A DNA stretch of 64,000 nt from a virus. Shown here piece after piece: positions 20,423 through 50,634 of the stretch (its first letter is position 1; every line of letters starts with the position of its first letter). A program made the position numbers and the translations under genes. The notes under the pieces were generated by a model. It was not told where the DNA came from, made no database searches, and saw only the letters and a list, made by a program, of their open reading frames with translations. The DNA lies in the UHGV virus genome UHGV-1351982. One strand, 5' to 3'.

Positions 20423-21297
20423 TGAGTAAATCCTGGGGAAAATTTATTGAAGAGGAAGAAGCTGAGCTGGCTTCTCGTCGCAACCTAATGATTGTTGATG
20501 GAACTAACTTAGGCTTCCGCTTCAAACATAATAATAGTAAGAAACCATTCGCATCAAGTTATGTTTCTACAATTCAATCTCTGGCAAAATCCTATTCAGC
20601 TAGAACTACAATAGTTCTCGGTGATAAAGGAAAGTCTGTATTCCGTTTAGAGCATCTCCCTGATTATAAAGGGAACCGTGACGAAAAGTATGCACAACGT
20701 ACAGAAGAAGAAAAAGCACTAGATGAACAGTTCTTTGAATATCTTCGTGATGCTTTCGAATTATGTGAAACCACATTCCCGACCTTTACTATTCGTGGTG
20801 TAGAAGCAGACGATATGGCAGCTTATATTGTTAAGCTCATTGGTCATTTATATGATCACGTTTGGCTGATCTCTACTGATGGTGACTGGGATACCCTATT
20901 AACTGATCGAGTTTCTCGCTTCTCCTTCACCACACGTCGTGAGTACCATCTTCGTGATATGTATGAACACCATAACGTTGATGATGTTGATCAGTTTATC
21001 TCCCTGAAAGCAATCATGGGGGATCTCGGTGATAACATTCGCGGCGTTGAAGGCATTGGTGCAAAACGTGGTTATAACATTATCCGTGAATTTGGTAATG
21101 TTCTGGATATTATTGATCAACTCCCTCTGCCTGGGAAACAGAAGTATATACAGAATCTGAACGCATCGGAGGAGTTGCTTTTCCGAAACTTGATTCTGGT
21201 TGATTTACCGACCTATTGTGTAGATGCTATTGCTGCTGTGGGTCAAGACGTATTAGATAAGTTTACGAGAGATATTTTGGAGATCGCAGGACAATGA
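20422..21297 (+). CDS. D15: flap endonuclease / 5'-3' exonuclease (T5 D15-like)
   Basis: 291 aa, matching the size and N-terminal sequence I recall for T5 exonuclease (MSKSWGKFIEEEEAE...); conserved acidic residues. Confidence 0.9.
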   Translation: MSKSWGKFIEEEEAELASRRNLMIVDGTNLGFRFKHNNSKKPFASSYVSTIQSLAKSYSARTTIVLGDKGKSVFRLEHLPDYKGNRDEKYAQRTEEEKALDEQFFEYLRDAFELCETTFPTFTIRGVEADDMAAYIVKLIGHLYDHVWLISTDGDWDTLLTDRVSRFSFTTRREYHLRDMYEHHNVDDVDQFISLKAIMGDLGDNIRGVEGIGAKRGYNIIREFGNVLDIIDQLPLPGKQKYIQNLNASEELLFRNLILVDLPTYCVDAIAAVGQDVLDKFTRDILEIAGQ

Positions 21298-21740
21298 TTA
21301 AAATTAAACTAACTCATCCAGATTGCATGCCAAAGATTGGCTCTGATGATGCCGCAGGTATGGATCTGCGTGCGTTCTTCGGCACTAACCTTGCAGCAGA
21401 TTTACGTGCTATTGCACCAGGCAAATCCCTTATGATTGACACCGGTGTTGCGGTGGAAATTCCGCGAGGTTGGTTTGGTTTGGTAGTTCCTCGCAGCTCT
21501 TTAGGTAAGCGTAAACTGATGATCGCAAATACCGCAGGAGTGATCGACTCAGACTACCGTGGTACTATTAAGATGAACCTTTATAACTACGGTTCTGAAA
21601 TGCAAACTCTGGAGAATTTCGAGAGACTTTGTCAGCTAGTAGTACTACCACACTACTCAACTCATCATTTTGAAATCGTTGACGAACTAGAGGAGACTGA
21701 TCGTGGAGAAGGCGGCTTTGGAAGCTCAGGAAGTAAATAA
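21294..21740 (+). CDS. dut: dUTPase
   Basis: 148 aa; dUTPase motifs (AGMDLRA, IDSDYRG, C-terminal GGFGSSG). Confidence 0.8.
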   Translation: MIKIKLTHPDCMPKIGSDDAAGMDLRAFFGTNLAADLRAIAPGKSLMIDTGVAVEIPRGWFGLVVPRSSLGKRKLMIANTAGVIDSDYRGTIKMNLYNYGSEMQTLENFERLCQLVVLPHYSTHHFEIVDELEETDRGEGGFGSSGSK

Positions 21741-21972
21741 TTATAACTATTCAGATCCTAATATGGTAGGCAATTTTGAGCAGTCAAATACTTATCATGT
21801 TGCAGTTGCTGAACCTAACCTGAATAATGTAGTTCTTAAGGTAGATCGTGAAGGTAACGTAATCCATTGGGATGAAGAAGCTTTTGTCGAATTATGTAGT
21901 AAGTCTGATGATCCTACACTTAGAACTATGTTGGCAGTGTTTAACTTAGGTATTATTGCTGGAAGCAGATAA
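21703..21972 (+). CDS. hypothetical protein
   Basis: 89 aa ORF overlapping dUTPase 3' end; followed by bidirectional terminator. Confidence 0.35.
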   Translation: MEKAALEAQEVNNYNYSDPNMVGNFEQSNTYHVAVAEPNLNNVVLKVDREGNVIHWDEEAFVELCSKSDDPTLRTMLAVFNLGIIAGSR

Positions 21973-21977
21973 TAATA

Positions 21978-22010
21978 AACCCCAGTGGATTTCCACTGGG
22001 GTTTTCTTTT
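21978..22010. terminator. bidirectional intrinsic terminator between convergent early and late blocks
   Basis: Stem CCCCAGTGGA/TCCACTGGGG with A-run upstream and T-run downstream. Confidence 0.75.
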
Positions 22011-23223
22011 ACTTATCAAGTAATTGTTTTACCAATTTCTTAAGTTCATCAATTTCTTGCTGTTGCTTTTCAACAACTTCATTAAGTTCATTAAAAGCAT
22101 TAACTAGGAGAGCGGTAACACCGCTATAACTTACACCTAAATACTCGCTGTTAGAGATTTTATAAACAGCCTCCGGCAAAACTGCCTGTACATCCTGAGC
22201 TATTACACTTGCTTCCTCAGAATAAATAGAGTGTTCATCTTCATCAAGATTATTACGTTTAAAATAAGTATAACCCTTAATAGATTTAACTTTCTCTCTT
22301 GCTGTTTTAATCTCTTTTAAATTGGCTTTTAATCTAATATCAGAAGTGCTAACCCATTGAACGCAAGACGCATATCCAGCATCATTAAATGTGTAGATTG
22401 CACCTTTTATGTTAAAATGAGCCTCACAACCCCCGGCACTATATCTAACAACATCAAGGCCAGCAGCCCAGTCACCACCCCATCTAACTACTTTAAACAC
22501 GTTTGAGGCAGCATCATCACCTGGTAATTCAACAAGAAGGCCACAAGCGCGATCGGCTTCAGCCTTAGCACGATTTGCCTCAGTAGTAGCATCTACAGCC
22601 TTATCTCCTGCTTCTACAGCAGAACCAGCCGCATTAGTTTCTGATTCTTTAGCATTTAATTCTGATTGTTTAGCGGAAGCAGCATGTTCTCCAGCAGTTG
22701 TAGCAGCAGCTTCTGCACCTGCTTTTGCTGTTTCAGCACCAGTCTTAGCAGTTTCTGCAGCTGTCTGAGCTTGTTGAGCCGCAGTTTTAGCTTGTTCGGC
22801 AAGTCTACGACTGGTCTCCGCATTTTGAGCAGCTAATTCAGCAGAATTCCTGAATCCTTTAGATTCTTCCGCCGATGTAGCGGATGCTTCAGCACTCTTT
22901 TGTGACAGACCAGCTTGTCTCTCAGCTTCCGCGGCAGATGCCGCAGATTGAGTTGCAGATGTTTCAGAAGAAGTAGCATAAATTGCAGCTAGGTTCTCCG
23001 AGTCCTTAGCATTTGTTTCAGATTCTTTTGCTGCAATCTCAGAATCTTTTGCTGCCGCAGCAGAAGAAGCAGAGGCTTCTACAGCAGCAGTTAATTCACC
23101 AGCAGTAATAGAACTAATAGAATTACCTAAAACTACTGTATATTTAGGATACTTACTAGCAGTAGTTGTAGTGTCATCTATATTCAGAATCTGCTGTACA
23201 ATAATTTTAGTTTTAAGTGCCAT
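22009..23223 (-). CDS. tail fiber protein with C-terminal intramolecular-chaperone (peptidase S74-like) domain
   Basis: 404 aa; Ala/Ser/Glu-rich low-complexity N-terminal half; C-terminal part resembles autoproteolytic chaperone domains of phage fibers. Confidence 0.65.
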   Translation of the reverse strand: MALKTKIIVQQILNIDDTTTTASKYPKYTVVLGNSISSITAGELTAAVEASASSAAAAKDSEIAAKESETNAKDSENLAAIYATSSETSATQSAASAAEAERQAGLSQKSAEASATSAEESKGFRNSAELAAQNAETSRRLAEQAKTAAQQAQTAAETAKTGAETAKAGAEAAATTAGEHAASAKQSELNAKESETNAAGSAVEAGDKAVDATTEANRAKAEADRACGLLVELPGDDAASNVFKVVRWGGDWAAGLDVVRYSAGGCEAHFNIKGAIYTFNDAGYASCVQWVSTSDIRLKANLKEIKTAREKVKSIKGYTYFKRNNLDEDEHSIYSEEASVIAQDVQAVLPEAVYKISNSEYLGVSYSGVTALLVNAFNELNEVVEKQQQEIDELKKLVKQLLDK

Positions 23224-23645
23224 TATTGAGTTACTCCATCGCTGATGTATACTTTACCTTCCATAATACGGAAAGAACTGACTTCAGAGCCAATTACATC
23301 ACGAGTCATTAGGATATCATAATAACCAGCAAAACGTTGTCTTGGGTTATACTTATCACGTTCTTTAGATGCTTTTTCACCAATATTAGTAACGTCTGCA
23401 ACGGAAAGACTAATTGCAGCAGCACCTTGAGCAGCATCAATAACACGAGTTTTAAAGTTAGCTAGAACCTCGGCGTTCTCATCTAAACTAGATTTAATAG
23501 TTCCTCGGAGTGAATATCCGGTTAAGTTAACAGGAACTTCTGTTGGTGGATATACACTGTCATCAACATCCATAAACTGCATGATAAGACCATAAGGTAC
23601 TTTCTCATCAACAACAATATCAATAACTCGGTTTTCTGTACTCAT
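23223..23645 (-). CDS. hypothetical tail-associated protein
   Basis: 140 aa ORF; stop overlaps the start of the fiber gene (TAATG); lies within the tail gene block. Confidence 0.5.
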
Positions 23646-23650
23646 TATAA

Positions 23651-25708
23651 TTACCTTATATGGATATACCCACTATTTAGGTCTATCTTCATCTTGTAGT
23701 ATGCTTCAGGGTTCCCTGATAACGCAGCATTTCTATCATAGATTATATTAACACCGATTTGTGATAAGAAGGCATTTCCTGCCACAATCTTATCCGCAGT
23801 AACAGTTCCATTAACAATCATATTGCCATGAAGAACCATTGCAGGGTTAATCCATCCAGCTCCGTTCCATTGACGGGTAAATGCTGTTTGTGGAGCATTA
23901 CTGTTAAATTGTGTTAGAACATCGTATTTAACCGGAGGTTTTCCAAAGTTATTTTGAAAGAATGCGTTAGCTTGTCCATCATCCCAACCGCCTAATCCAG
24001 GAATACCCATGGAGTACATCCCAGGACCACGCTGTCCATCATGTCCTATAGTACCTTCAGTACCACTCCATTGAACTACATCAGACCAGCTAGTACCTTC
24101 AAGAAGTTTGTCAGTAACTGGATCAAGTGTACCTGTAGTCGCATAGATATTTTGTGTCATATCTGTACGGTTAGGTGGAGTTTTTGACCAACCAGGAGGT
24201 GGATAATCTTGTTCTAACGGTTTGGCCGGTAAAGATGTTGCTAACTTATAAACAAATACTATTTGCTTACCTTGTAAACCAGTTCCAATATCTACGTCAC
24301 CATTTGGTGTTCCAATTACTACACCACTAGAAATACGCAGAGTAGTACCATCATAACGTATCCATTGTGTAGCATTACCAATGTCTAACTTAGCTTTGGC
24401 AGAGGTATTATCCATACCCATCCAAATACCAGAGTTATTATCCCCCCAGGATTTACCTTGAGTGTAAATTGCTGGGTTATCTTTACCAGACAAGTTAGTC
24501 ATGATAAAGTTCGCAGCATTAATATCTCTAGTAATTACTTTACCATCAACGTTAACAACACGGTTTATAGGGTCAAAAGAAATAGGTGCTTTACCTTCTT
24601 CATCTAGCAGACCAATGTTAATAGCACCAGTAGCTGCATCAATTAGGAATGTTTGTCTCCAGATTTCCCCATCTTTCATACTACCCTTAATAAAGGCATA
24701 GTTAACATCAATACCCGTCTCATTGACAAAACTATTATCTAGAGGAGTATCTTCATTCAGAATAAATGTTACAGGAGATGACTCTGTTATATCTTGTTTG
24801 TTTGGTCCCCAGGCAATTGATGAAACCTTAAAGGTATGTTCAACTTTCCATGGGAATGATATAATCGTTGCAGCTCTGGCAGCACCCACGTTTATCTTTT
24901 GAGCTTTAGCCCATCCGGTTTTAGCGTATTCCTCGGAGTTTATGTAAGTAACCAAGAATTCACGAACGTTAGCACCAGCACCACGTTCCCAGTCCCACTC
25001 AATTCTAACATCATATCGTTCTTTACCATCAGCAATTCGTGCAGCTTTAAAAACAATATCGATAGGTGCAGTAGGAGGAACAAAATTATAAGCTACAGTT
25101 AGAATATTAGGGAACTCATAGTACCCAGAAGAATCAACTGTAACACCATCAGGCATAGTTACTTGACCAGATATTCTGATCTTATAATCTCCGATAGGAA
25201 CTCCACCAAATTTAATAGTAGAACCTAAAGCCCCAATATAATATTTAGTCCATGGACTGTCTTCAGTGGCTGTACTTTTTAACTCAATAGTACAGTAGCT
25301 TGCTTCACCAGTTGTTTCCACAACAACTATTGGTGCGCCCACCCCAACATCCACAGGTTCTGACTCAGATCTTGCTGCAACAATTATTGGCTTCTCTTTT
25401 GTTTTAAAGTTAGTTTCATTAGAGAGGTTAATACCAATTTTTGCATTTAAAAGTTCTGAGTCAATAATTGAGTCATAAAAAGCTCCCTGAACCTGATAGG
25501 TAGTTGAGGGAGTTAAGTTATTGATCATAACAAAGAAAGTGTCGATTCCAGTGAAATCTCTCCTATCCACTTCTTCGCCAAGTTTAAGCCAGAATGATCT
25601 ACCGATAACATCGTAGTCGGTATAGATAGAATGCTGGATATACGCCATAGTATATCCAGTCATAATACTATTTAAGACCATCTTGGCTGGTGCATTATTC
25701 GAAATCAT
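23651..25708 (-). CDS. baseplate / central-fiber protein (T5 pb4-like)
   Basis: 685 aa (T5 pb4 recalled as ~688 aa); synteny after pb3-like gene. Confidence 0.7.
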
Positions 25709-28558
25709 TTAAATAGATGCCCAATCCACAGATTGCTCGCCATTATCACCTTCTGCTCTTATACGGAAGCGTAACTTCCTATTAATACCTAGAGCATCCT
25801 CGTTATGAAGAGCATAGTCTGCCTTATTGTATATCAGTAGATAATCGTAGACATACTGATCTTCAATTCGTACACTTCTTAATAAACGATCTAGGTTATC
25901 GTAGATTTCGAGAGTGTAGAAGATTCCATCAATGATATCTTCTTCTGGAATTCTATCCCAGGCCAACTTAACGTCTGGTCCTACAAACTCCGATGCATCT
26001 CCTGAAGCTGTGTTAGTAACCCTGAAATTACTAACGATGCTTAAGTTTTTAGCAGAGTTAAGTTCTACCGATAATGTTACAGGAGAACTTCGTCTACCAT
26101 TAATATCTACAGCTCTAATCTCAAAGACTGCTAAACCAGCAGGTTCTCCAATAATTTCTTGGATCATTCGTAGATTTGGATTAGTTTCTAGTTGCTGTAT
26201 GATATAAGGATCAGCATGCCCTGAATGAACGATGGAGTAATAAACAACGTTATTAGTTAAGCTAGGAAGCCAAGATAACTCACCATTCTTACCAATAGAT
26301 CCTACTTGTCCACCCGGTGTTGGTGTGTACATAAAGTCTCTAGGAGGCAGTACGTTATTACTAACATCAGGGATATCGTTACCACTATTATCAACCTGCT
26401 CGGAGTTAATGAATACATCCTCACCATACTCTTGCAGTGTAATATTAATCTTACCTTCTCTAGAGTTTTCAACTTCATCAACTAGGAAGTATTTCTTATC
26501 CCAACCATAACGACCATATGTAAAAGCAATCGGATCGTTAGGCTCAATGCCTATGAAATGATATGGTAATGAGAATGTGAGAGTTCGTGAGTAACGAGAC
26601 TTTTTCAGTTCTCTATCTGCAAAGCTACGTGCAGTATAGTAGTTAGTGATATTTGCAAAAGAAAGCTGAAGTTTTTTATCTAATCCTTTATCTTGTTCCT
26701 TAAATATAGAGTTAAAGAATGTAATGGAGTTAGTTTTCCAGCTTAATGCGGGATCTAATATAGAGGCTTGTACTGAGTTAAACTTATTTCTACCAGTAGT
26801 ATCTGATAGCTCCAGATCACCATAGGTATCTAAGAAGTCAATCTCTAATGGGGTGTTTGAGAACTTCTCAACAGTTATTCTATACTGTCCAGATAAGTTG
26901 TTGATAGCACCGCCATAAGACTCTATTAATCCCTGCACGTTTTTAAATACTGACTCAGAGGTATCGAGAATAGTATTCATTTGAACTATTTGTCTATTCT
27001 CTCCTACAGCATCAGTCCATCCAACGTATCTCCAGTAGGGTTGCCAAGAAACCTGATAGGATTCATCAATGATATCCAGGATAGCTGCTTCTTGAATAAG
27101 TTGCTGGAGAGGGAACTGATCAATAGTGATATTAGCACCATAGCGATCAGAGGTTAGGTAGTCCAGAGTTTGCCAGATACCATTTAAGCTAGTCTTGTCA
27201 GCAGTTACTCTACCATCTGAATGATAGATCTTAATCTTCTTACCCTGAACTTCAGCACTAACTTCTGGAATTTCTGTTCTGTTTTCATTAATAGTAAAGC
27301 GAACGATAGCATAAGCAGTATCTAACAGTTTATAACGAGAGTCCCAGTATTCCGGGCCATTCTCATTCATGTTCTGTAAATAGAAACCTTTCTCTTTTGC
27401 AATGTTAACTAGAACATCCGCAGCAGATTGATCTGCTTTACCATGATAAGTCCATATACGGATATCGCCATTACCATCATTATACTTATATTCCTGTCCA
27501 TGAACAGAAGGTTCAGAGCTTGGCTGGCCTGAAGCAATACGTTGCATGGTATCACCAGCTACTTTCTTAGTACCAAAGCAAGTACGAGACTTACTATCAT
27601 TAGGATCAATACAGATCATTGGTACATCACCAAAGTAGAAATCTAGGAATCCATCAATCTCACCCTCACAGAAAGCGTATACTACATATACGATATTAGG
27701 GTTATGCAGTTCAGTATCTGCGAATACTGGGATTCCAGGAATTTTCTGAACTCCGTACACTACTGGCAGGAATTTAGCAGCTAAGTTAAAATCAAGATCT
27801 ACTTCCTTAGTTACAGTCTCATAGTATTTCTTTAGGCTATAGCTTCTAGAAAGACCAAATAACTTTTTCTTAGATTGTAACTTATAACGTTCTTCCTGAA
27901 CCTGATACTTAGCAAGAATAGAGATACTCTTGTTAGCGTGGAAGAACCCGTAGTCCTCTTGATATTCAGGTCGCTTAGCACCATTAGACGGAACTAATTG
28001 TCCGGCAACAATCTCAAGCCCTCTATGGTCAGCATCATCTGTGAAACGTCCATTTACTCTATCAAAGTCATAGAATTGGTTTGAACAGTTCCATGTAATA
28101 ACGGATGTACTAACTCCCGAAGTACCAATGTTATCCTTAATACCACCACCAGTGATTTTACCACGGAAGTAAAGTAAAGGACCATTAGTGTCTGGATCTA
28201 CAGGAAGAATGTTACCTTCTTCATCAATAACCGCTTGATGGATTGAGATAGATCTATCTAGGAAGGATACACCATTTTGGACTAGTTTTAATACTTCATC
28301 CTCAGCAGTACCTGTGATAGTAAAAGAAAGGCTACCAATGGAAAGTTTTCTATTTTGTTTATGTGTTGTTATAGACTTAACTTTACCGGATGTGTAAAGA
28401 ATACCATTATAAATTACATCCCTAAAATAGTCTGTAAGATAAATGTATGCAGAACTTGATCCGGTAGAGCTTGGCAATTCAAGAGTAATAAGGCATGCAG
28501 TTTTTATTTTATTATTAGTTCTTAAATACTCTCTTGCACTGTCAAGAATTTTCTTCAT
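25709..28558 (-). CDS. baseplate hub protein (T5 pb3-like)
   Basis: 949 aa, same size as T5 pb3 as I recall; synteny pb2-pb9-pb3-pb4. Confidence 0.75.
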   Translation of the reverse strand: MKKILDSAREYLRTNNKIKTACLITLELPSSTGSSSAYIYLTDYFRDVIYNGILYTSGKVKSITTHKQNRKLSIGSLSFTITGTAEDEVLKLVQNGVSFLDRSISIHQAVIDEEGNILPVDPDTNGPLLYFRGKITGGGIKDNIGTSGVSTSVITWNCSNQFYDFDRVNGRFTDDADHRGLEIVAGQLVPSNGAKRPEYQEDYGFFHANKSISILAKYQVQEERYKLQSKKKLFGLSRSYSLKKYYETVTKEVDLDFNLAAKFLPVVYGVQKIPGIPVFADTELHNPNIVYVVYAFCEGEIDGFLDFYFGDVPMICIDPNDSKSRTCFGTKKVAGDTMQRIASGQPSSEPSVHGQEYKYNDGNGDIRIWTYHGKADQSAADVLVNIAKEKGFYLQNMNENGPEYWDSRYKLLDTAYAIVRFTINENRTEIPEVSAEVQGKKIKIYHSDGRVTADKTSLNGIWQTLDYLTSDRYGANITIDQFPLQQLIQEAAILDIIDESYQVSWQPYWRYVGWTDAVGENRQIVQMNTILDTSESVFKNVQGLIESYGGAINNLSGQYRITVEKFSNTPLEIDFLDTYGDLELSDTTGRNKFNSVQASILDPALSWKTNSITFFNSIFKEQDKGLDKKLQLSFANITNYYTARSFADRELKKSRYSRTLTFSLPYHFIGIEPNDPIAFTYGRYGWDKKYFLVDEVENSREGKINITLQEYGEDVFINSEQVDNSGNDIPDVSNNVLPPRDFMYTPTPGGQVGSIGKNGELSWLPSLTNNVVYYSIVHSGHADPYIIQQLETNPNLRMIQEIIGEPAGLAVFEIRAVDINGRRSSPVTLSVELNSAKNLSIVSNFRVTNTASGDASEFVGPDVKLAWDRIPEEDIIDGIFYTLEIYDNLDRLLRSVRIEDQYVYDYLLIYNKADYALHNEDALGINRKLRFRIRAEGDNGEQSVDWASI

Positions 28559-44121: not shown

Positions 44122-45903
44122 TTAGGTTAGGCGTTGAACTGTTACACGTAGTCTTGGCAAGAAAACAGCTGCCGCTTCTGCAGCGTGAATGATAACACCC
44201 AACTCAACGTTGCCATTACCAAGGTTTTTAATAGTATAAATATATCCGTTCCTACGGAAAGCAAACTTATCAGGCCTACTAGCCCAAGTTTGTGTATAAC
44301 TATAGGAAGTTGTACTGTGATAAGGTACTAGATATCCAGGTGGCAGAGTAAGAATCTGGTGGAATACACCATCACCAGCTGTATAACTTTGTTGACGTCT
44401 ACCTTGTACCTGCCAAGCGCTACCGCCGTAAGTACGCACAGGCATTCCAGCAGTATTAAGATTACCCATAATAACTTCAGTAGTTAATATAACGGTAGAG
44501 TGAGCATTAGGTAATCCTAACCAAACAGTGGCCAAAGGTGTATAGAAGTCACCAGCACCAGGGTAGGAAGGAGTTATATCATCACCAACATAAGTACTTG
44601 CAACGTTGCCTGGAAATAACCTGAGGGGTACAGTACTAGGACTCCACACAGGTCCATGTTCATTACCGATGGAGTTGGTATTAGTATCTACATACCATTG
44701 TTTACCTACACCAAATTTATATAAGCTAATTTGAGAAGCTGCACCCCCATAGTTAACAGGAGACCACAACCCGCCATTACTAGAGCCGATAAATTCACAT
44801 CGTGCAGTATTATCACCAAAAACTCCGGTATACGCAGCGTTATTACCAACATACTCCATATCAGGGCGATAGCCTAAGTTTCCAAAGGCATTCTGGTTAA
44901 TGAATTTATATCCTGTATTTGGTAAACTAACACCTTTAATAGTAAAGTTAGATGGAGATATTAGGATATCTGAACCGGTAAATGGATTACCAGAAACTCC
45001 CATACTACCATTAGAATAGCGCAGATTTAGCACATACCAAATAACCTTAGTTGGCGTAACGTTATACCAGTCCTGTACATATACCTTTCTAGCAGACTGA
45101 GCAGCCATATTAGAAGTAGAACCTCTACAAACATATATTTTTTTTGGATATGCAGGAGATTGGTAAAGAACGTTTACGTTATCTGGTAGTACACCTTTCT
45201 TACCTGCAAAGCCACGAATATTAGAATTACAAACATAAAACCAATCATGGCCTCTACCAGCAGAACCAACAGGCGCCTGCCAGTTAGGTTCCCAATAATC
45301 TGCGTTACCACCATCTAAAGGAACAGTAGAGACACCAGTTGGAAAACCCATAAGACTCCAGGCTCTGGCAATGGCTTCACCAGCAGAAACACCACCAGGT
45401 CTAAAGATCTGGAAACCAGAGGACTGTAGTAAACTGCCTCCAGAACCTTGCCGAGCAATAGATTCCTCATGACCAAGACCACCATTATAGATATAGGTAC
45501 CATGAGCTAAACTATCACCGATCGCAAAAGCAGATGTTACAGATAATTCAGCACCAGCACGTGGTTGGTCTTCAAAGAATGATAAGAACTGGCCAACCTG
45601 AGATTGTGTACCATTAAGGAAACCCCTATGAGTACCATTTATCTCAATAGCAGTTAATATAACTCTACCAGGATCATTGGATTTAATGTTTATAATATCC
45701 CAAGGCATCTGAGTAACAAAGTACCCATTACCTGCATCACCTAGGGCAGCCTCATAAGTCCCATCAACTAGGACGAAGGGCATATCTGAGTGGAAGATAC
45801 TATTAGTATTTGGAGAGTAGTGCTGATTTATATCACCACCATTAGCAGCGTTTAGAGATAATACAGTTTTACCATCACTAAATTTTCCTGCGAAAAAACT
45901 CAT
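44122..45903 (-). CDS. receptor-binding tail protein (T5 pb5-like)
   Basis: 593 aa; Gly/Asn/Ser-rich; N-terminus MSFFAGK... resembles what I recall of T5 pb5; divergent from a lipoprotein gene, as for oad/llp in T5. Confidence 0.6.
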
Positions 45904-45927
45904 ACAATCTCCTTCTTTAAAAATGTA

Positions 45928-45959
45928 TTTGCTTAGATCCCTCTATTTTGCTATAATAT
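45928..45959 (+). promoter_or_regulatory. sigma70-type promoter for the lipoprotein gene (TTGCTT -35, TGCTATAAT -10)
   Basis: Conserved downstream box ATATTTATAAATTAAACAGAGGA; lies in the divergent region shared with the receptor-binding gene. Confidence 0.65.
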
Positions 45960-45986
45960 ATTTATAAATTAAACAGAGGAACGATT

Positions 45987-46253
45987 ATGAAAAAGTTACT
46001 AGCTATCGTAGTTGCAGCAGTAGTGTTGACTGGTTGTGTGCCAGCTCCCGAGCCATTTTGTAGGGCATATGTGAAGTCTTATGGTCATGTTGGTGAAGAA
46101 CACTACGCTTTAGATATTCGAGAAGCACGTACTGTGGGCTACCGATTCCCTAAAACTCAGTTACGCACTAAGTTTGGGTGGTGGGATTTGTCACAGTTTG
46201 ATCTCAAATATGGCGATTGCAAATTTAAACTAGAACAATCTGGTCACTTGTAA
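45987..46253 (+). CDS. llp: lipoprotein, Llp-like (candidate receptor-blocking / superinfection-exclusion protein)
   Basis: 88 aa; signal peptide with lipobox (AVVLTG-C); conserved early promoter upstream; divergent from receptor-binding gene. Confidence 0.7.
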   Translation: MKKLLAIVVAAVVLTGCVPAPEPFCRAYVKSYGHVGEEHYALDIREARTVGYRFPKTQLRTKFGWWDLSQFDLKYGDCKFKLEQSGHL

Positions 46254-46327
46254 TTAGTATAAAGTAAAAAGATCTCGAAGTAAACAAAAATTTTTATTTC
46301 TGGGATGAGGTACAGGTAGCAAACACA

Positions 46328-46642
46328 ATGCAAGATGAAGAAAAGTCCTTTCAGGAACCTGTTAACTTTGAAATAGATCCCAGGACTAAAGCAATACATG
46401 ATGCGATTAACGAAATCATTCAAGACGTCATAGAAGATACAATGGAAGATGTGATGGGAACATCCTTCTTACTAGAAGAATCCGGCTTCGATGAAGTAAT
46501 GGATCTTATCGGGACAGTCATAATGGTTCGTGCAATTGCTAGGATATTCCAAATACCAGGACTACAGGAGAAGCAAAGAGATGTCAGACGACAACAGAAG
46601 AAAGAACAGACGCGGGGAAGTGTACGAAAGTTGGATAAATAG
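46328..46642 (+). CDS. hypothetical acidic protein
   Basis: 104 aa ORF; overlaps the next small gene in another frame. Confidence 0.4.
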   Translation: MQDEEKSFQEPVNFEIDPRTKAIHDAINEIIQDVIEDTMEDVMGTSFLLEESGFDEVMDLIGTVIMVRAIARIFQIPGLQEKQRDVRRQQKKEQTRGSVRKLDK

Positions 46643-46715
46643 TTTCGGATTCGGGACTGTATTATTCTTTATCTTTGTACTCTTTTGGTTAGCGGCTATG
46701 GCGGGATGGTTATAA
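46581..46715 (+). CDS. small membrane protein
   Basis: ATG at 46581 after GGAGAAG inside track ORF 46530-46715; basic N-terminus then one hydrophobic helix. Confidence 0.4.
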   Translation: MSDDNRRKNRRGEVYESWINSFGFGTVLFFIFVLFWLAAMAGWL

Positions 46716-46819
46716 TGGAAGTAGTAATTATTGCTTTACTAGTTGTGGTACTTATCGGGCAGTGCATCTTAGACAACCACTTAGCTCGTATCGAACGTAA
46801 GCTGCGGGGAGACAAATAA
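46715..46819 (+). CDS. small membrane protein (34 aa)
   Basis: Not in track (below size cutoff); ATG overlaps upstream stop (TAATG); hydrophobic N-terminus MEVVIIALLVVVLIG. Confidence 0.4.
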   Translation: MEVVIIALLVVVLIGQCILDNHLARIERKLRGDK

Positions 46820-47013
46820 TGGATTGGTTAGGACTTATTACACTTGTAGTATGGCTTGTCTGGATTGTTGGATATATGACTTCACATCGTAACCGTATAC
46901 AGCGGCTAGAGGATAAAGTCACCCAGCTTAATATTAATATGGATAAGTTACTGGACTCCCAACGTAATGATCGGGCACGTATTCACCAACTTGAGAGGGA
47001 ATTAGATGTTTAG
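46819..47013 (+). CDS. small membrane protein
   Basis: 64 aa; start overlaps upstream stop (TAATG); N-terminal TM helix followed by a charged helical tail. Confidence 0.5.
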   Translation: MDWLGLITLVVWLVWIVGYMTSHRNRIQRLEDKVTQLNINMDKLLDSQRNDRARIHQLERELDV

Positions 47014-47233
47014 CTTTGTAGCTATCTTCATTATCGGGGTGCTTGCGGGAATCTTCGGAACACTCGGGGCTATTAACAAGCATCGTGAATACGTTGCGGG
47101 AGTATCGCGGGAGCTTTCGGAAAGGGAGCGGAAGTTTGCGGAGAAACGTGCGGAGTTTGAGCGAGAGTGGTCGGATGGATCTCGGGCGTCGCAGAGGAGG
47201 TTTCGGGCTGATTCCGTGAGTTCTCCTAAGTAG
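47006..47233 (+). CDS. small membrane protein
   Basis: 75 aa; N-terminal TM helix, Arg/Glu-rich tail; followed by strong terminator. Confidence 0.5.
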   Translation: MFSFVAIFIIGVLAGIFGTLGAINKHREYVAGVSRELSERERKFAEKRAEFEREWSDGSRASQRRFRADSVSSPK

Positions 47234-47340
47234 CGCTAATTTGACTTTTGCCAAATCTCATAAGATTACACATGAAGGTGTGCCCAGAGGTTCCCTAGAT
47301 GAGAATGAGTCTCATTACCGCCCCCTTACTTAGCAAGCTA

Positions 47341-47390
47341 ATAGTCACACCATGTTATCATTACACAGTGTGACTATTTTATTTTTAATT
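47341..47390 (+). terminator. intrinsic terminator after small-membrane-protein genes
   Basis: 10-bp stem ATAGTCACAC/GTGTGACTAT followed by TTTTATTTTT. Confidence 0.6.
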
Positions 47391-47391
47391 G

Positions 47392-48126
47392 TTAGGCAAC
47401 TTTTAATTTATCAATGAATTGTTGCGGTGTGGTACTATATTCCGCGCGTTCTTCCTCGGTCATACCTTCCCAACACATTTTTAAACGTTCGGCTAGGAAT
47501 TGATAATCGTTATCATCATCAAGCGATTCATCAATAAAGGTTTCACCGATCAATGTTACGCCGATTGATAGGATATCGTTAACGGCTTGAGCATCCAGCG
47601 TTTTAAATCCAGCACTTGCCGCCGCTGATAATACACCTTTATGATCATCAATCATTGTAAAATCAGCATTAGGATATAGCTGTTTAAACAGTTCAAAGTA
47701 ATAAGATTTATATACAGCGTCTTTACTGTGGTATATTTCGCTAACCTTATTTGCATCAAAGTATTTATGTAATGTATCGCGGGAAAATACGCGAATATTA
47801 CTATTTCCGCGCCCTCGCAAGCCTTGTTTGCGTAAATAAAAATAATCGCTTTTAGACATTAGGCGCGCGGTACAAATAATATTTAAAGTATTTGCATCAT
47901 TCATACATTGGCGCATATATTCAACCAATGGCAATAAAGAATCCTGCATAATTAAATCATGCTTGCAGGCTTCGCGGGAATATTTATTTAAATCTAAATT
48001 CCCATTATCATCAAAACAAGGCCCGACACGGTGCATTGAGTTAATGATTGTACCGTCTAAATCCCAAATCATAACGCGGGAAATATGCGGGAAAGTGCGG
48101 GTAATATTCATGTTGACTTGATTCAT
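47392..48126 (-). CDS. dmp: 5'-deoxyribonucleotidase, HAD-like (T5 Dmp-like)
   Basis: 244 aa; HAD motif I (VMIWDLDGTI); pre-early gene neighbourhood with A1/A2 homologues. Confidence 0.7.
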   Translation of the reverse strand: MNQVNMNITRTFPHISRVMIWDLDGTIINSMHRVGPCFDDNGNLDLNKYSREACKHDLIMQDSLLPLVEYMRQCMNDANTLNIICTARLMSKSDYFYLRKQGLRGRGNSNIRVFSRDTLHKYFDANKVSEIYHSKDAVYKSYYFELFKQLYPNADFTMIDDHKGVLSAAASAGFKTLDAQAVNDILSIGVTLIGETFIDESLDDDNDYQFLAERLKMCWEGMTEEERAEYSTTPQQFIDKLKVA

Positions 48127-48213
48127 TTGTTACATTCTCCATTTAAGGGATTTAGGTTAATTCAATCTTGCCAGCTAATTATATTGGATTAGCTGGCAAT
48201 GTTCAATTAACTA

Positions 48214-48606
48214 TTAATTAGTGAGGCCATACGCTAGCGCGTCACCAATAAAGCTAAGATCTTCACCATGTACGCTAGAACGAATCCCCGCGCAAGTGTA
48301 GACCATCGCGCTAGCTTCTGGATTGCAGACCGGACACGGCTTAACAACCGCAAACGCTAGACCGGATTTAAGCGCATCAATAATAATTGTTTGTACTGTT
48401 AAAGTATCAGCGTAAACACCTTTTGCTTTTGTATGGCTTGCCACTTTGCCGGTATCATAAGCAAAGGTAGTAACCTGCAAAACGTCGTTATAATTCAGCA
48501 AATCGAAATTAACTTGCCCCGCCTCGACGTGATAACGTTCGCCATTAGAATAAACTAGAACGATGGAAGAAGTAGCGCGGTCAAAAGGAATGCTTTGGTT
48601 TTTCAT
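48214..48606 (-). CDS. hypothetical protein
   Basis: 130 aa ORF in pre-early operon. Confidence 0.5.
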   Translation of the reverse strand: MKNQSIPFDRATSSIVLVYSNGERYHVEAGQVNFDLLNYNDVLQVTTFAYDTGKVASHTKAKGVYADTLTVQTIIIDALKSGLAFAVVKPCPVCNPEASAMVYTCAGIRSSVHGEDLSFIGDALAYGLTN

Positions 48607-48638
48607 GTTTATGACTCCAGATTATTTAATTACGGGAT

Positions 48639-48917
48639 TTATTGAAAAAATACATTTAAAGATAAATCAGTTTTACGAAAATATGTTTCGTCGCCGTCTT
48701 TCCTTTCTTGATTAAGGTAATCGCCTGTCATTACCTGAATAGAATCTTTTCCGAAAAAGATCATATTTTCGCCAATATTACTATCCCATACGGCGTACAT
48801 TCCCGCGTACATTCCACGGGTAACTAAATAAACGCAACTATCAAAAGACATTTCAGACCATGCAATATCTTCTAAACAATTGCTATCAGGGATAGATATA
48901 TTAATTTTACTAGCCAT
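48639..48917 (-). CDS. hypothetical protein
   Basis: 92 aa ORF in pre-early operon. Confidence 0.5.
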   Translation of the reverse strand: MASKINISIPDSNCLEDIAWSEMSFDSCVYLVTRGMYAGMYAVWDSNIGENMIFFGKDSIQVMTGDYLNQERKDGDETYFRKTDLSLNVFFQ

Positions 48918-48969
48918 TTAATAAACCTTTTATTAATGGCGGTATATTTCAACCGCCGATTAAATTTAA

Positions 48970-50634
48970 TTATGCAAAGAATTTACCGTTCTTAAAGTCA
49001 ATCAATGTTCTTTGACCGTTTGCATAGGTAATTAAATGCGTTTGCGTCCAGCTTGACGCGCCCACGTTGTAGCCCATATCAAGGGAACCAGCAACGCCAG
49101 CGGTATAAACGCCGCCGTAAATGCTAGCCGTATGAGTATGACCAGTGTTAAGGCGTCCCAACTTTTTAAACTGCTTAGGATTGCCCCGACTGCCGTTAAT
49201 GCCATTGTGACCATGTACGCCGCATTCAATGCCAGCGATTTTAAACGACTGGTCAGTAGTCAGGAAAATAGCGTTAAATTCGCAACCTGCGACACTACGC
49301 AAGGCGTAATCTAGCACGTTAAAAGTATCATCCTTTTCAGCAATAGCGGCGTATATAGCAGCGTTTAGACGGTGATACAATTCCGCGTTTGCGGGATCGT
49401 CTTTAATGTTAGCGTTACGATCATCTAACCAGCGGGATAAAGCTAAATCATGGTTAGATTCAACAATGATTGTTTGAGAGAAATCACGCTCCATTGATTC
49501 TAATACGCGTCCAGTGTCGATAAGATCATCTAGAACCTTGTCACGTCCTGCGGCGTACTGTTTAGCAAGGAATACACCACTAGCGCGGTTGTGATGGTTA
49601 CGCGATGTAAAATCATGCACATCATGAATAAACTGATATTTAGGCTTGAGAATATCAAGCAAGCTGTTTTCACTAGCCCATGAAGCAACGGCGCATTCAT
49701 CATCTAATTTTTCGGCGTGAATATCACCATATTGCAAGCCTAGAACATGATCGGACGTTTCAAAACATCCGGTAGGCATAGCGCAAACATTCAAATCATA
49801 AAACATTCCGCTTTCGTCCATCGTTTCAAGCTGACGAACAAAAAATTCGCCGTCGTCGTCAAATTCTACCAGCAAAGCGCCGAAATTATGTAAAGCCTCG
49901 GCCTTTTGTCCTGCCTTTTGCTGGATATAGTTTTTAAGCGTAGCCGTTCCGGTTGAATACATACGGCGCACTACTTCACCTTTTAACGCTGGCACACTTT
50001 CAGCGGTAATTTTAGCGTGACCAATTGCCAGACCTTCAATATTTAAAGCCGTGGCGGTTTCTGCGAATCCTGAAAGCGGATAGTCTGCCGTTGGTAACAC
50101 GTTAATTTCAGCCATGAAAGCAAAACGGCGATTATTTAAAAATACGTTTTTCTCGCAAATATATTTATTAAATGCGGGATCGTATTTAATGCCTTCGTTA
50201 CCTTCTCCATTCTGGAAGCCGTTTTTATTGTAAATGAATTTACTAACCAGCAATTCACCGCCGATATATTCAGCGAATTTTTCCAGACTTGCTAAAAAGT
50301 TTTTATGCGGGAAAGTATTATTTTGAATCGACGTTAGAATAAAACGGCGACCGGATTTAACTTCCCACTGTTCCACGGTACTAGAAACAATTCCCGCCGC
50401 TTCGGGGCGATCATCATTTTTAATCGCCTTTTCAGCTTTTGCCGCTTTCGGTTTTGCTGGCTTATTTGCTTCCAACCAATCGCAAATTGCGGTTGAATGT
50501 TTCGTTGTATCGTAAACAGCTTTTGATATATCGTCGCAAACTTCCAGCTTAGTAGCGCGTAAACGTTTACCGTAGAAATTAAAATCAGCGGCAAGTTTAA
50601 CGATCTGGGCTTGTTTTTCTGCGGAAATATTCAT
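48970..50634 (-). CDS. A1: A1-like pre-early protein, metallophosphoesterase fold
   Basis: 554 aa (T5 A1 recalled as ~556 aa); calcineurin-type motifs (SDH, GDIH, ESNHD, GHTHT). Confidence 0.8.
   Translation of the reverse strand: MNISAEKQAQIVKLAADFNFYGKRLRATKLEVCDDISKAVYDTTKHSTAICDWLEANKPAKPKAAKAEKAIKNDDRPEAAGIVSSTVEQWEVKSGRRFILTSIQNNTFPHKNFLASLEKFAEYIGGELLVSKFIYNKNGFQNGEGNEGIKYDPAFNKYICEKNVFLNNRRFAFMAEINVLPTADYPLSGFAETATALNIEGLAIGHAKITAESVPALKGEVVRRMYSTGTATLKNYIQQKAGQKAEALHNFGALLVEFDDDGEFFVRQLETMDESGMFYDLNVCAMPTGCFETSDHVLGLQYGDIHAEKLDDECAVASWASENSLLDILKPKYQFIHDVHDFTSRNHHNRASGVFLAKQYAAGRDKVLDDLIDTGRVLESMERDFSQTIIVESNHDLALSRWLDDRNANIKDDPANAELYHRLNAAIYAAIAEKDDTFNVLDYALRSVAGCEFNAIFLTTDQSFKIAGIECGVHGHNGINGSRGNPKQFKKLGRLNTGHTHTASIYGGVYTAGVAGSLDMGYNVGASSWTQTHLITYANGQRTLIDFKNGKFFA

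Follow-up and report, generated by a model that had tools for sequence, protein, structure and literature searches.

A compact tail fibre locus in a T5-like Epseptimavirus phage: a probable in-frame deletion fusion of ltfA and ltfB

The tail fibre locus of the T5-like phage studied here encodes a single 404-aa protein which, as judged from alignments, consists of LtfA 1-226 and, in the same reading frame, the C-terminal 178 residues of an LtfB allele. The locus was interpreted, with a probability of about 75%, as a deletion derivative of the two-gene branched ltfA + ltfB locus of Epseptimavirus, in which an in-frame fusion was formed and O-antigen binding was lost. Most probably the phage is defective in its L-shaped tail fibres (LTFs), depends on an intact pb5-type receptor-binding protein and is viable where O-antigen does not shield the receptor. 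The analysis covered a stretch of 64,000 nucleotides, referred to as the window. The two ORFs of 140 and 404 aa named in the initial annotation of the locus were both present as described, and their coordinates and those of the other features are listed in Table 1.

Table 1. Features of the fibre locus and the receptor-binding gene in the window
Feature	Position	Strand	Basis
Hairpin with 12-bp stem, bidirectional terminator between the convergent DUF7369 and fibre genes	21977..22004		Terminator scan
404-aa LtfA::LtfB fusion ORF (probable), 42.4 kDa	22009..23223	-	ORF list; stop codon TAA at 22009-22011
Residues 294-404, Peptidase_S74 intramolecular chaperone, 12.7 kDa	22012..22344	-	Predicted scissile bond between T293 and S294
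Putative catalytic K299	22327-22329	-	Motif alignment
Putative catalytic S294	22342-22344	-	Motif alignment
Residues 227-293, remnant of the LtfB distal domain, small beta unit before the cleavage site	22345..22545	-	AF2; homology
Residues 40-226, Ala-rich alpha-helical shaft, trimeric coiled coil	22546..23106	-	AF2, composition, periodicity
Junction, 8-bp microhomology GCGCGATC common to the ltfA and ltfB sides, codons D224-R225-A226	22547..22554		BLASTN against STK8t
Residues 1-39, N-terminal strands docking into the LtfC/p132 collar ring	23107..23223	-	DT57C LtfA alignment; docking role from PMC10713586
140-aa collar protein p132/LtfC (LTF attachment ring), intact, outside the truncation	23223..23645	-	Pfam and PDB matches
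pb5/Hrs-type receptor-binding protein, 593 aa, intact	44122..45903	-	PHROG 4815, receptor binding tail protein

The window was assigned to a T5-like phage of the genus Epseptimavirus (Demerecviridae), whose relatives are of the Salmonella/E. coli type. Its first 22 kb were 98-99% identical to the Salmonella/Escherichia phages PRF-SP13, PECP14, JNwz02 and EscoHU1. The gene order near the fibre locus was of the T5 type, with genes for a D13/SbcC-like protein, a PDDEXK nuclease, a flap endonuclease and a dUTPase and the DUF7369 gene on the plus strand, and, convergent to them on the minus strand, the 404-aa ORF, the 140-aa ORF, pb4 (685 aa) and pb3 (949 aa). The ATG of the 404-aa ORF overlapped the p132 stop codon by 1 nt, and the same overlap was present in the relatives. 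The terminator hairpin was also found in STK8t, and a bidirectional terminator is annotated at the corresponding position in T5. According to the ORF list of the window, the 404-aa ORF was the only one between p132 and the DUF7369 gene that encoded a fibre or an S74 domain.

Residues 1-226 of the 404-aa protein shared 99% identity with EH3 LtfA. Residues 224-404 matched only the C-terminus of LtfB, with 63% identity to EH3 LtfB and 92% to the LtfB proteins of STK8t, UTK0010 and S124, and the DNA coding for the C-terminal 178 residues was about 89-90% identical to ltfB of STK8t, UTK0010, S124 and A148. The locus thus has the single ORF, the LtfA N-terminus, the LtfB C-terminus and the in-frame deletion that define an ltfA-ltfB deletion fusion. 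It had been proposed that the side fibre of this phage was truncated or replaced; truncation was borne out, but replacement was not, as the ORF appears to be an in-frame LtfA::LtfB fusion arising from a deletion of about 3.9 kb.

The yardstick for this truncation had been the single 1396-aa pb1 of T5, which was the wrong one; the right comparison is with the two-gene LtfA + LtfB locus of the 98-99% identical relatives. These closest Epseptimavirus relatives carried ltfA (1027-1074 aa) and ltfB (583-764 aa) and not a single T5-type fibre gene. LtfA and LtfB comprised 1074 and 696 aa in EH3 and Stitch, and 1027 and 661 aa in STK8t. All 10 loci with an identical collar protein encoded full fibres, nine of them with LtfA of 1027-1071 aa and LtfB of 583-764 aa (one split) and the tenth with a single 755-aa S74 fibre.

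Several records of the fibre region departed from the usual arrangement. The phage with the 755-aa fibre (MK972704.1, 8423-10690) had the identical collar protein, but its fibre had a longer shaft rich in Ala/Ser/Thr and differed in the distal part, which shows the natural diversity of locus architectures. In 100268_sal2 (KU927497.2, 11506-13489) ltfB was split into ORFs of 295 and 381 aa, with S74 on the second only. In the Salmonella phage KKP 3953 (OR067837.1, 918-5936) ltfA and ltfB were distributed over six ORFs, with ltfA pieces of about 83, 201, 683 and 76 aa and ltfB pieces of about 256 and 340 aa; either sequencing errors introduced frameshifts or this is a further LTF locus that has degraded. 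The records 'Campylobacter phage A148', 'Corynebacterium phage CPphiVTCCBPA_418' and 'Klebsiella phage 150049' matched the fibre region (window 21700-25800) with 92-99% identity, and their host labels look doubtful, owing to contamination or mislabelling.

The 140-aa ORF had been counted as part of the stand-in for the T5 fibre. This was incorrect, as the ORF encodes the conserved collar protein p132/LtfC, which is encoded by T5 too. It matched the Pfam family PF23926 LtfC (E 1.9e-15), and all 140 residues were aligned with DT57C LtfC (8hqz_Q, E 7e-84) and with T5 p132 (7qg9_R, E 2.7e-64). The DNA of the gene was 100% identical to that of EH3 and others. In the T5 record NC_005859 p132 is annotated as two pieces, T5.135 and T5.136, and Ayala et al. 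(2023) put this split annotation down to a frameshift error (PMC10713586).

The N-terminal part of the fibre protein was that of an ordinary LtfA. Residues 1-230 matched DT57C LtfA (PDB 8hqz_d) in a phmmer search with E 4e-97, being identical through residue 52, and shared 49% identity with T5 pb1. In DT57C approximately the first 39 residues of LtfA thread into the dodecameric LtfC ring, and the helix that starts at T40 forms a trimeric coiled coil projecting from the tail (PMC10713586). Residue 40 is a threonine here as well, and helices were predicted by AF2 for residues 41-120, 125-200 and 209-224. Residues 40-226 contained 33% Ala, 79% A/S/E/T/K/Q and no proline, and the DNA of this segment showed the 21-nt periodicity of heptads. 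If fully helical, the shaft is predicted to be about 28 nm long. A collar-docking N-terminus, a coiled coil starting near T40 and a gene located directly after p132 place this part of the protein with the LtfA/pb1 type. The Ala/Ser/Glu-rich composition reported for the N-terminal half was therefore confirmed, but there is nothing unusual in it, since it is the ordinary coiled-coil shaft of all T5-family LTFs, including pb1.

An S74-type intramolecular chaperone had also been proposed for the C-terminus, and this proposal stands on a Pfam match, a match to S16 gp37 and a conserved motif. Residues 294-354 matched PF13884 over the complete profile (1-58 of 58) with E 1.3e-12 and 48.2 bits, above the cut-off of 22, and the C-terminus matched the chaperone-bearing end of S16 gp37 (6f45) with E 6.6e-14. 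As in the S74 fold, the region combined an alpha/beta unit of mixed type with a long coiled-coil helix at its C-terminal end. At the start of the domain the Ser-Lys dyad motif (T/S)↓S-D-x-R-x-K was present (the arrow marks the scissile bond); the sequence V-S-T↓S-D-I-R-L-K aligned with N-T↓S-D-A-R-L-K of T5 pb1 and with SSDRRIK of S16 gp37. Among 38 homologues S294, D295, I296 and R297 were invariant and K299 nearly so. In T5 pb1 the scissile bond is T1263↓S1264 with K1269 as the base, and S1264 and K1269 were defined by experiment (PMC4690869). Cleavage of the 404-aa protein at the corresponding position is predicted to yield products of 29.8 kDa (residues 1-293) and 12.7 kDa (residues 294-404).

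Only 67 LtfB-derived residues were left upstream of the predicted cleavage site. This remnant was homologous to residues 484-550 of UTK0010 LtfB, and AF2 predicted strands in residues 238-287 with a pLDDT of about 80-90. Cleavage of T5 pb1 needs a correctly formed triple beta-helix upstream and requires both an Arg from a neighbouring chain and an Asp located no more than about 25 residues upstream (PMC4690869).

The position of the join was determined by BLASTN against STK8t. Window 22547-23700 aligned with STK8t ltfA/p132 at 99.5% identity, and window 21700-22554 aligned with the 3' end of STK8t ltfB and the region downstream. The two alignments overlapped by 8 nt, and a base-by-base view agreed. 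From the difference in offset, 3,854 bp were missing in comparison with STK8t, and from the coordinates about 4.15 kb were missing in comparison with the EH3-type locus. The reading frame was kept across the join, A-E-A-D-R-A being followed by C-G-L-L-V-E. The 8-bp microhomology and the junction were read against the nearest known ltfB allele, which is only 89-90% identical in DNA, so that the STK8t comparison fixes neither the precise position of the junction in the parent nor the true extent of the microhomology. The chance of an overlap of at least 8 bp at a random joint was estimated at about 1e-4, and the overlap thus fits a microhomology-mediated deletion.

Long repeats shared by ltfA and ltfB were considered as a cause of the join, whether in the phage or in the assembler, and were rejected. 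Long exact direct repeats between STK8t ltfA and ltfB were absent, the repeat families being 14-32 nt long with 64-93% identity; the true parent may differ from STK8t in this respect. With no such repeats in STK8t, neither homologous recombination nor k-mer graph collapse would explain the join. A natural module boundary at the junction was also ruled out. Residues 270-658 of LtfB were homologous, without interruption and with 72% identity, to drexlervirus lateral fibres such as that of SRT8, and this homology crosses the break, which lies near LtfB residue 483. The junction is consequently a break inside a conserved distal module of about 390 residues and not a tidy domain swap.

The sequence AAGCGCG at 22545-22551 on the plus strand, at the junction, holds the GCGC core of the T5 nick consensus 'Pu-pGCGC' given in the T5 GenBank record. 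GCGC was not enriched in the window (88 observed against about 102 expected), and a link between nicks and the deletion would be pure speculation.

A second irregularity was seen next to the locus. The DNA of the DUF7369 gene (21703-21972) was 83-93% identical to the nearest relatives and that of the ltfB remnant 89-90%, with flanks of at least 99%, and from these values the two appear to form a mosaic patch. Its donor lineage was absent from the collections searched. A Logan contig of 1,264 bp from run SRR5677830 was 100% identical to window 20739-22002, including the divergent DUF7369 allele, and ended just short of the fibre gene, within the hairpin of the terminator. This lineage was therefore present in another run as well, and the fibre locus there might show the undeleted parent.

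The compact allele was unique in all databases searched. The exact 404-aa protein was found on a single Logan contig, 101,664 bp long, and the rest of its 90% cluster consisted of N-terminal fragments only. Among 5.8 billion clusters no protein covered more than 61% of the 404-aa query, and sequence searches found no phage record that was colinear across the compact locus. The junction sequence had 0 matches in IMG/VR, JGI metagenomes and GTDB genomes, and a 27-mer from the ltfB side, used to look for the undeleted parent, also had 0 matches in these three collections. The IMG/VR relatives of the C-terminal 178 aa reached at most 92% identity.

An allele seen in one contig might be an artefact of assembly or library preparation, in which ltfA and ltfB were wrongly joined, whereas both genes are complete in the actual phage. 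The Logan contig does come from automated assembly, the fibre genes are repeat-rich, and the three collections yielded no second observation of the junction. However, ltfA and ltfB of the nearest relative match over only 8 bp at the junction, probably too short for k-mer graph collapse, the join keeps the reading frame, and an overlap that would arise by chance at the estimated frequency given above points to a microhomology-mediated DNA event; deletions of the same class have, moreover, been documented by experiment (PMC4728585). An artefact was accordingly rated as quite unlikely. Even less weight was given to a mixed population, in which a real deletion existed beside the full-length locus in one stock and the assembler returned the deleted path only. 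Such mixtures are known, since about 30% of DT571/2 plaques were LTF-defective in unselected stocks (Golomidova 2016, PMC4728585), and the 1,264-bp contig of SRR5677830 breaks just before the fibre gene. The 101,664-bp contig was nevertheless unbroken, and a well-covered alternative path would normally be expected to break it at the junction. Both the artefact and the mixed stock are unlikely.

According to the preferred reading, a deletion derivative, illegitimate microhomology-mediated recombination at GCGCGATC would have removed about 3.85-4.15 kb, from LtfA codon 227 to the end of the gene, the ltfA/ltfB boundary and approximately the first 483 ltfB codons, and would have joined the rest in frame. 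Four parts would have been kept: the N-terminus that docks into the collar, the coiled-coil shaft, the final 67 residues of the distal domain of LtfB, and the S74 chaperone. The region of LtfA that binds the receptor would have been lost, together with the docking region of LtfB and most of its conserved distal module. The locus has no LtfA sequence past residue 226 and no counterpart of the pb1 bullet domain, and with them no distal O-antigen-binding domain; a branched two-protein LTF is likewise absent, as there is no separate ltfB but only its last 178 codons fused to ltfA. The part of LtfA that recognises the receptor and the part that carries LtfB both lie, in related phages, within the lost region. 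If the chaperone trimerises and cleaves T293↓S294, the virion would bear three short stubs of about 30 kDa per chain with a helix of about 28 nm; if folding fails, it would have no fibres. With stubs or with none, reversible O-antigen binding would be lost, a loss of function that we infer from the missing parts. Adsorption would then proceed via the intact pb5/Hrs-type protein alone, as in LTF-less T5-like mutants on hosts without protective O-antigen.

This receptor-binding protein showed 99.7% identity to that of KKP_3831, 64% to DT571/2 rbp and 34% to T5 pb5. The receptor of DT571/2 is BtuB (PMC4728585), and phages need LTFs on hosts that produce O-antigen but can do without them on rough hosts (PMC4728585, PMC10713586). 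The suggestion that the compact locus might mean different host-range determinants holds insofar as these are affected, but determinants of a different kind are not indicated; the LTF determinants are probably lost. In window 44122-50634 the pb5-type gene is followed by genes for a polynucleotide kinase and for A1, the 'DNA transfer protein' (48970-50634), and the window appears to run from the late region into the pre-early block, which is located within the terminal repeat in T5.

The protein could instead be a functional minimal fibre, a short straight fibre maintained by selection, whose cleaved tip binds a surface glycan with LtfB-like or altered specificity. The reading frame runs through the fusion, which retains all known parts for attachment and chaperone-assisted folding, and residues 238-287 are predicted to form a compact beta unit with a pLDDT of about 85. 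The receptor site of T5 pb1 was proposed to lie at the very tip and to be unmasked by chaperone cleavage (PMC4690869), and DT571/2-ABF shows that LtfA-LtfB fusions can work (PMC4728585). Against this, the break lies within the distal module common to LtfB and drexlervirus side fibres, DT571/2-ABF kept far more of LtfB (288-767), and the DT530(1) fusion was defective. Host-range mutations in Ltf of the Epseptimavirus phage 37 map to residues 468-556, a region that is missing from the 404-aa protein. The dependence of pb1 cleavage on an upstream triple beta-helix (PMC4690869) and the single occurrence of the architecture also argue against it, and a working minimal fibre was considered unlikely. 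If it were true, the S74 chaperone would be able both to fold and to process a fibre that had hardly any beta-helical shaft, the extreme tip would suffice for glycan binding, and the protein would be a scaffold for engineered short synthetic receptor-binding fibres.

If the locus is the deletion derivative proposed above, the side fibres of this phage are most likely crippled, which matters for its annotation and handling; a host-range prediction, therapy or biocontrol based on its "tail fiber protein" label would mislead. The locus adds an Epseptimavirus example to the known instability of ltf loci, here via a short microhomology and not via long repeats. Should the stub be assembled and processed, it would set a lower bound on the upstream needs of an S74 chaperone.

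The locus resembles those of DT57C (cryo-EM 8HQZ, PMC10713586), EH3, Stitch and STK8t in its LtfA-type sequence up to residue 226, in the p132/LtfC gene immediately upstream with a 1-nt overlap, and in the terminator downstream of the fibre gene. It differs from the branched LTFs of these four phages in having no separate ltfB, no LtfA beyond residue 226 and no receptor-binding domains. The similarity to T5 pb1 (1396 aa; PDB 4UW7/4UW8; Garcia-Doval 2015, PMC4690869) comprises the N-terminal 215-230 residues, which are 49% identical, a C-terminal chaperone and the cleavage motif T↓SDxRLK (T1263↓S1264 and K1269 against T293↓S294 and K299). However, nothing here corresponds to the middle of pb1, a stretch of about 1,000 residues that contains the bullet-shaped receptor-binding domain, and the chaperone in the window is of the LtfB/S16-gp37 sequence type and not of the pb1 type.

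Mutants with ltfA-ltfB deletion fusions have been recorded before, in laboratory stocks of related phages. In DT530(1) and DT571/2-ABF, in-register deletions between ltfA and ltfB appeared spontaneously during passage on E. coli C600 (Golomidova 2016, Viruses 8:26, PMC4728585), and LTF-less variants of DT571/2 appear on this strain at very high frequency (PMC4728585). DT571/2-ABF is a functional LtfA(1-663)::LtfB(288-767) fusion, while DT530(1), also in register, is defective (PMC4728585). As in these mutants, the window has a single ORF with an LtfA N-terminus and an LtfB C-terminus, a large in-frame deletion at the same locus, and a retained collar end and S74 domain. The deletions in DT530(1) and DT571/2-ABF were explained by homologous recombination at long stretches in which ltfA and ltfB are identical, whereas only 8 bp of microhomology were present here and the parent allele was not found. 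The allele in the window, with LtfA 1-226 and the last 178 residues of LtfB, is also far more drastic than that of DT571/2-ABF. DT530(1) and DT571/2-ABF are T5-like coliphages, and the phage in the window belongs to another genus, Epseptimavirus, with Salmonella-type relatives. LTF-less mutants of the T5 family, such as DT571/2 ltfA S23am and the LTF-deficient T5 mutants cited in PMC4728585, are expected to be similar in growing via pb5/Hrs alone on rough or permissive hosts and in losing O-antigen-dependent adsorption. Those mutants carry nonsense or null alleles, whereas the allele in the window could still make a collar-anchored stub with a processing domain.
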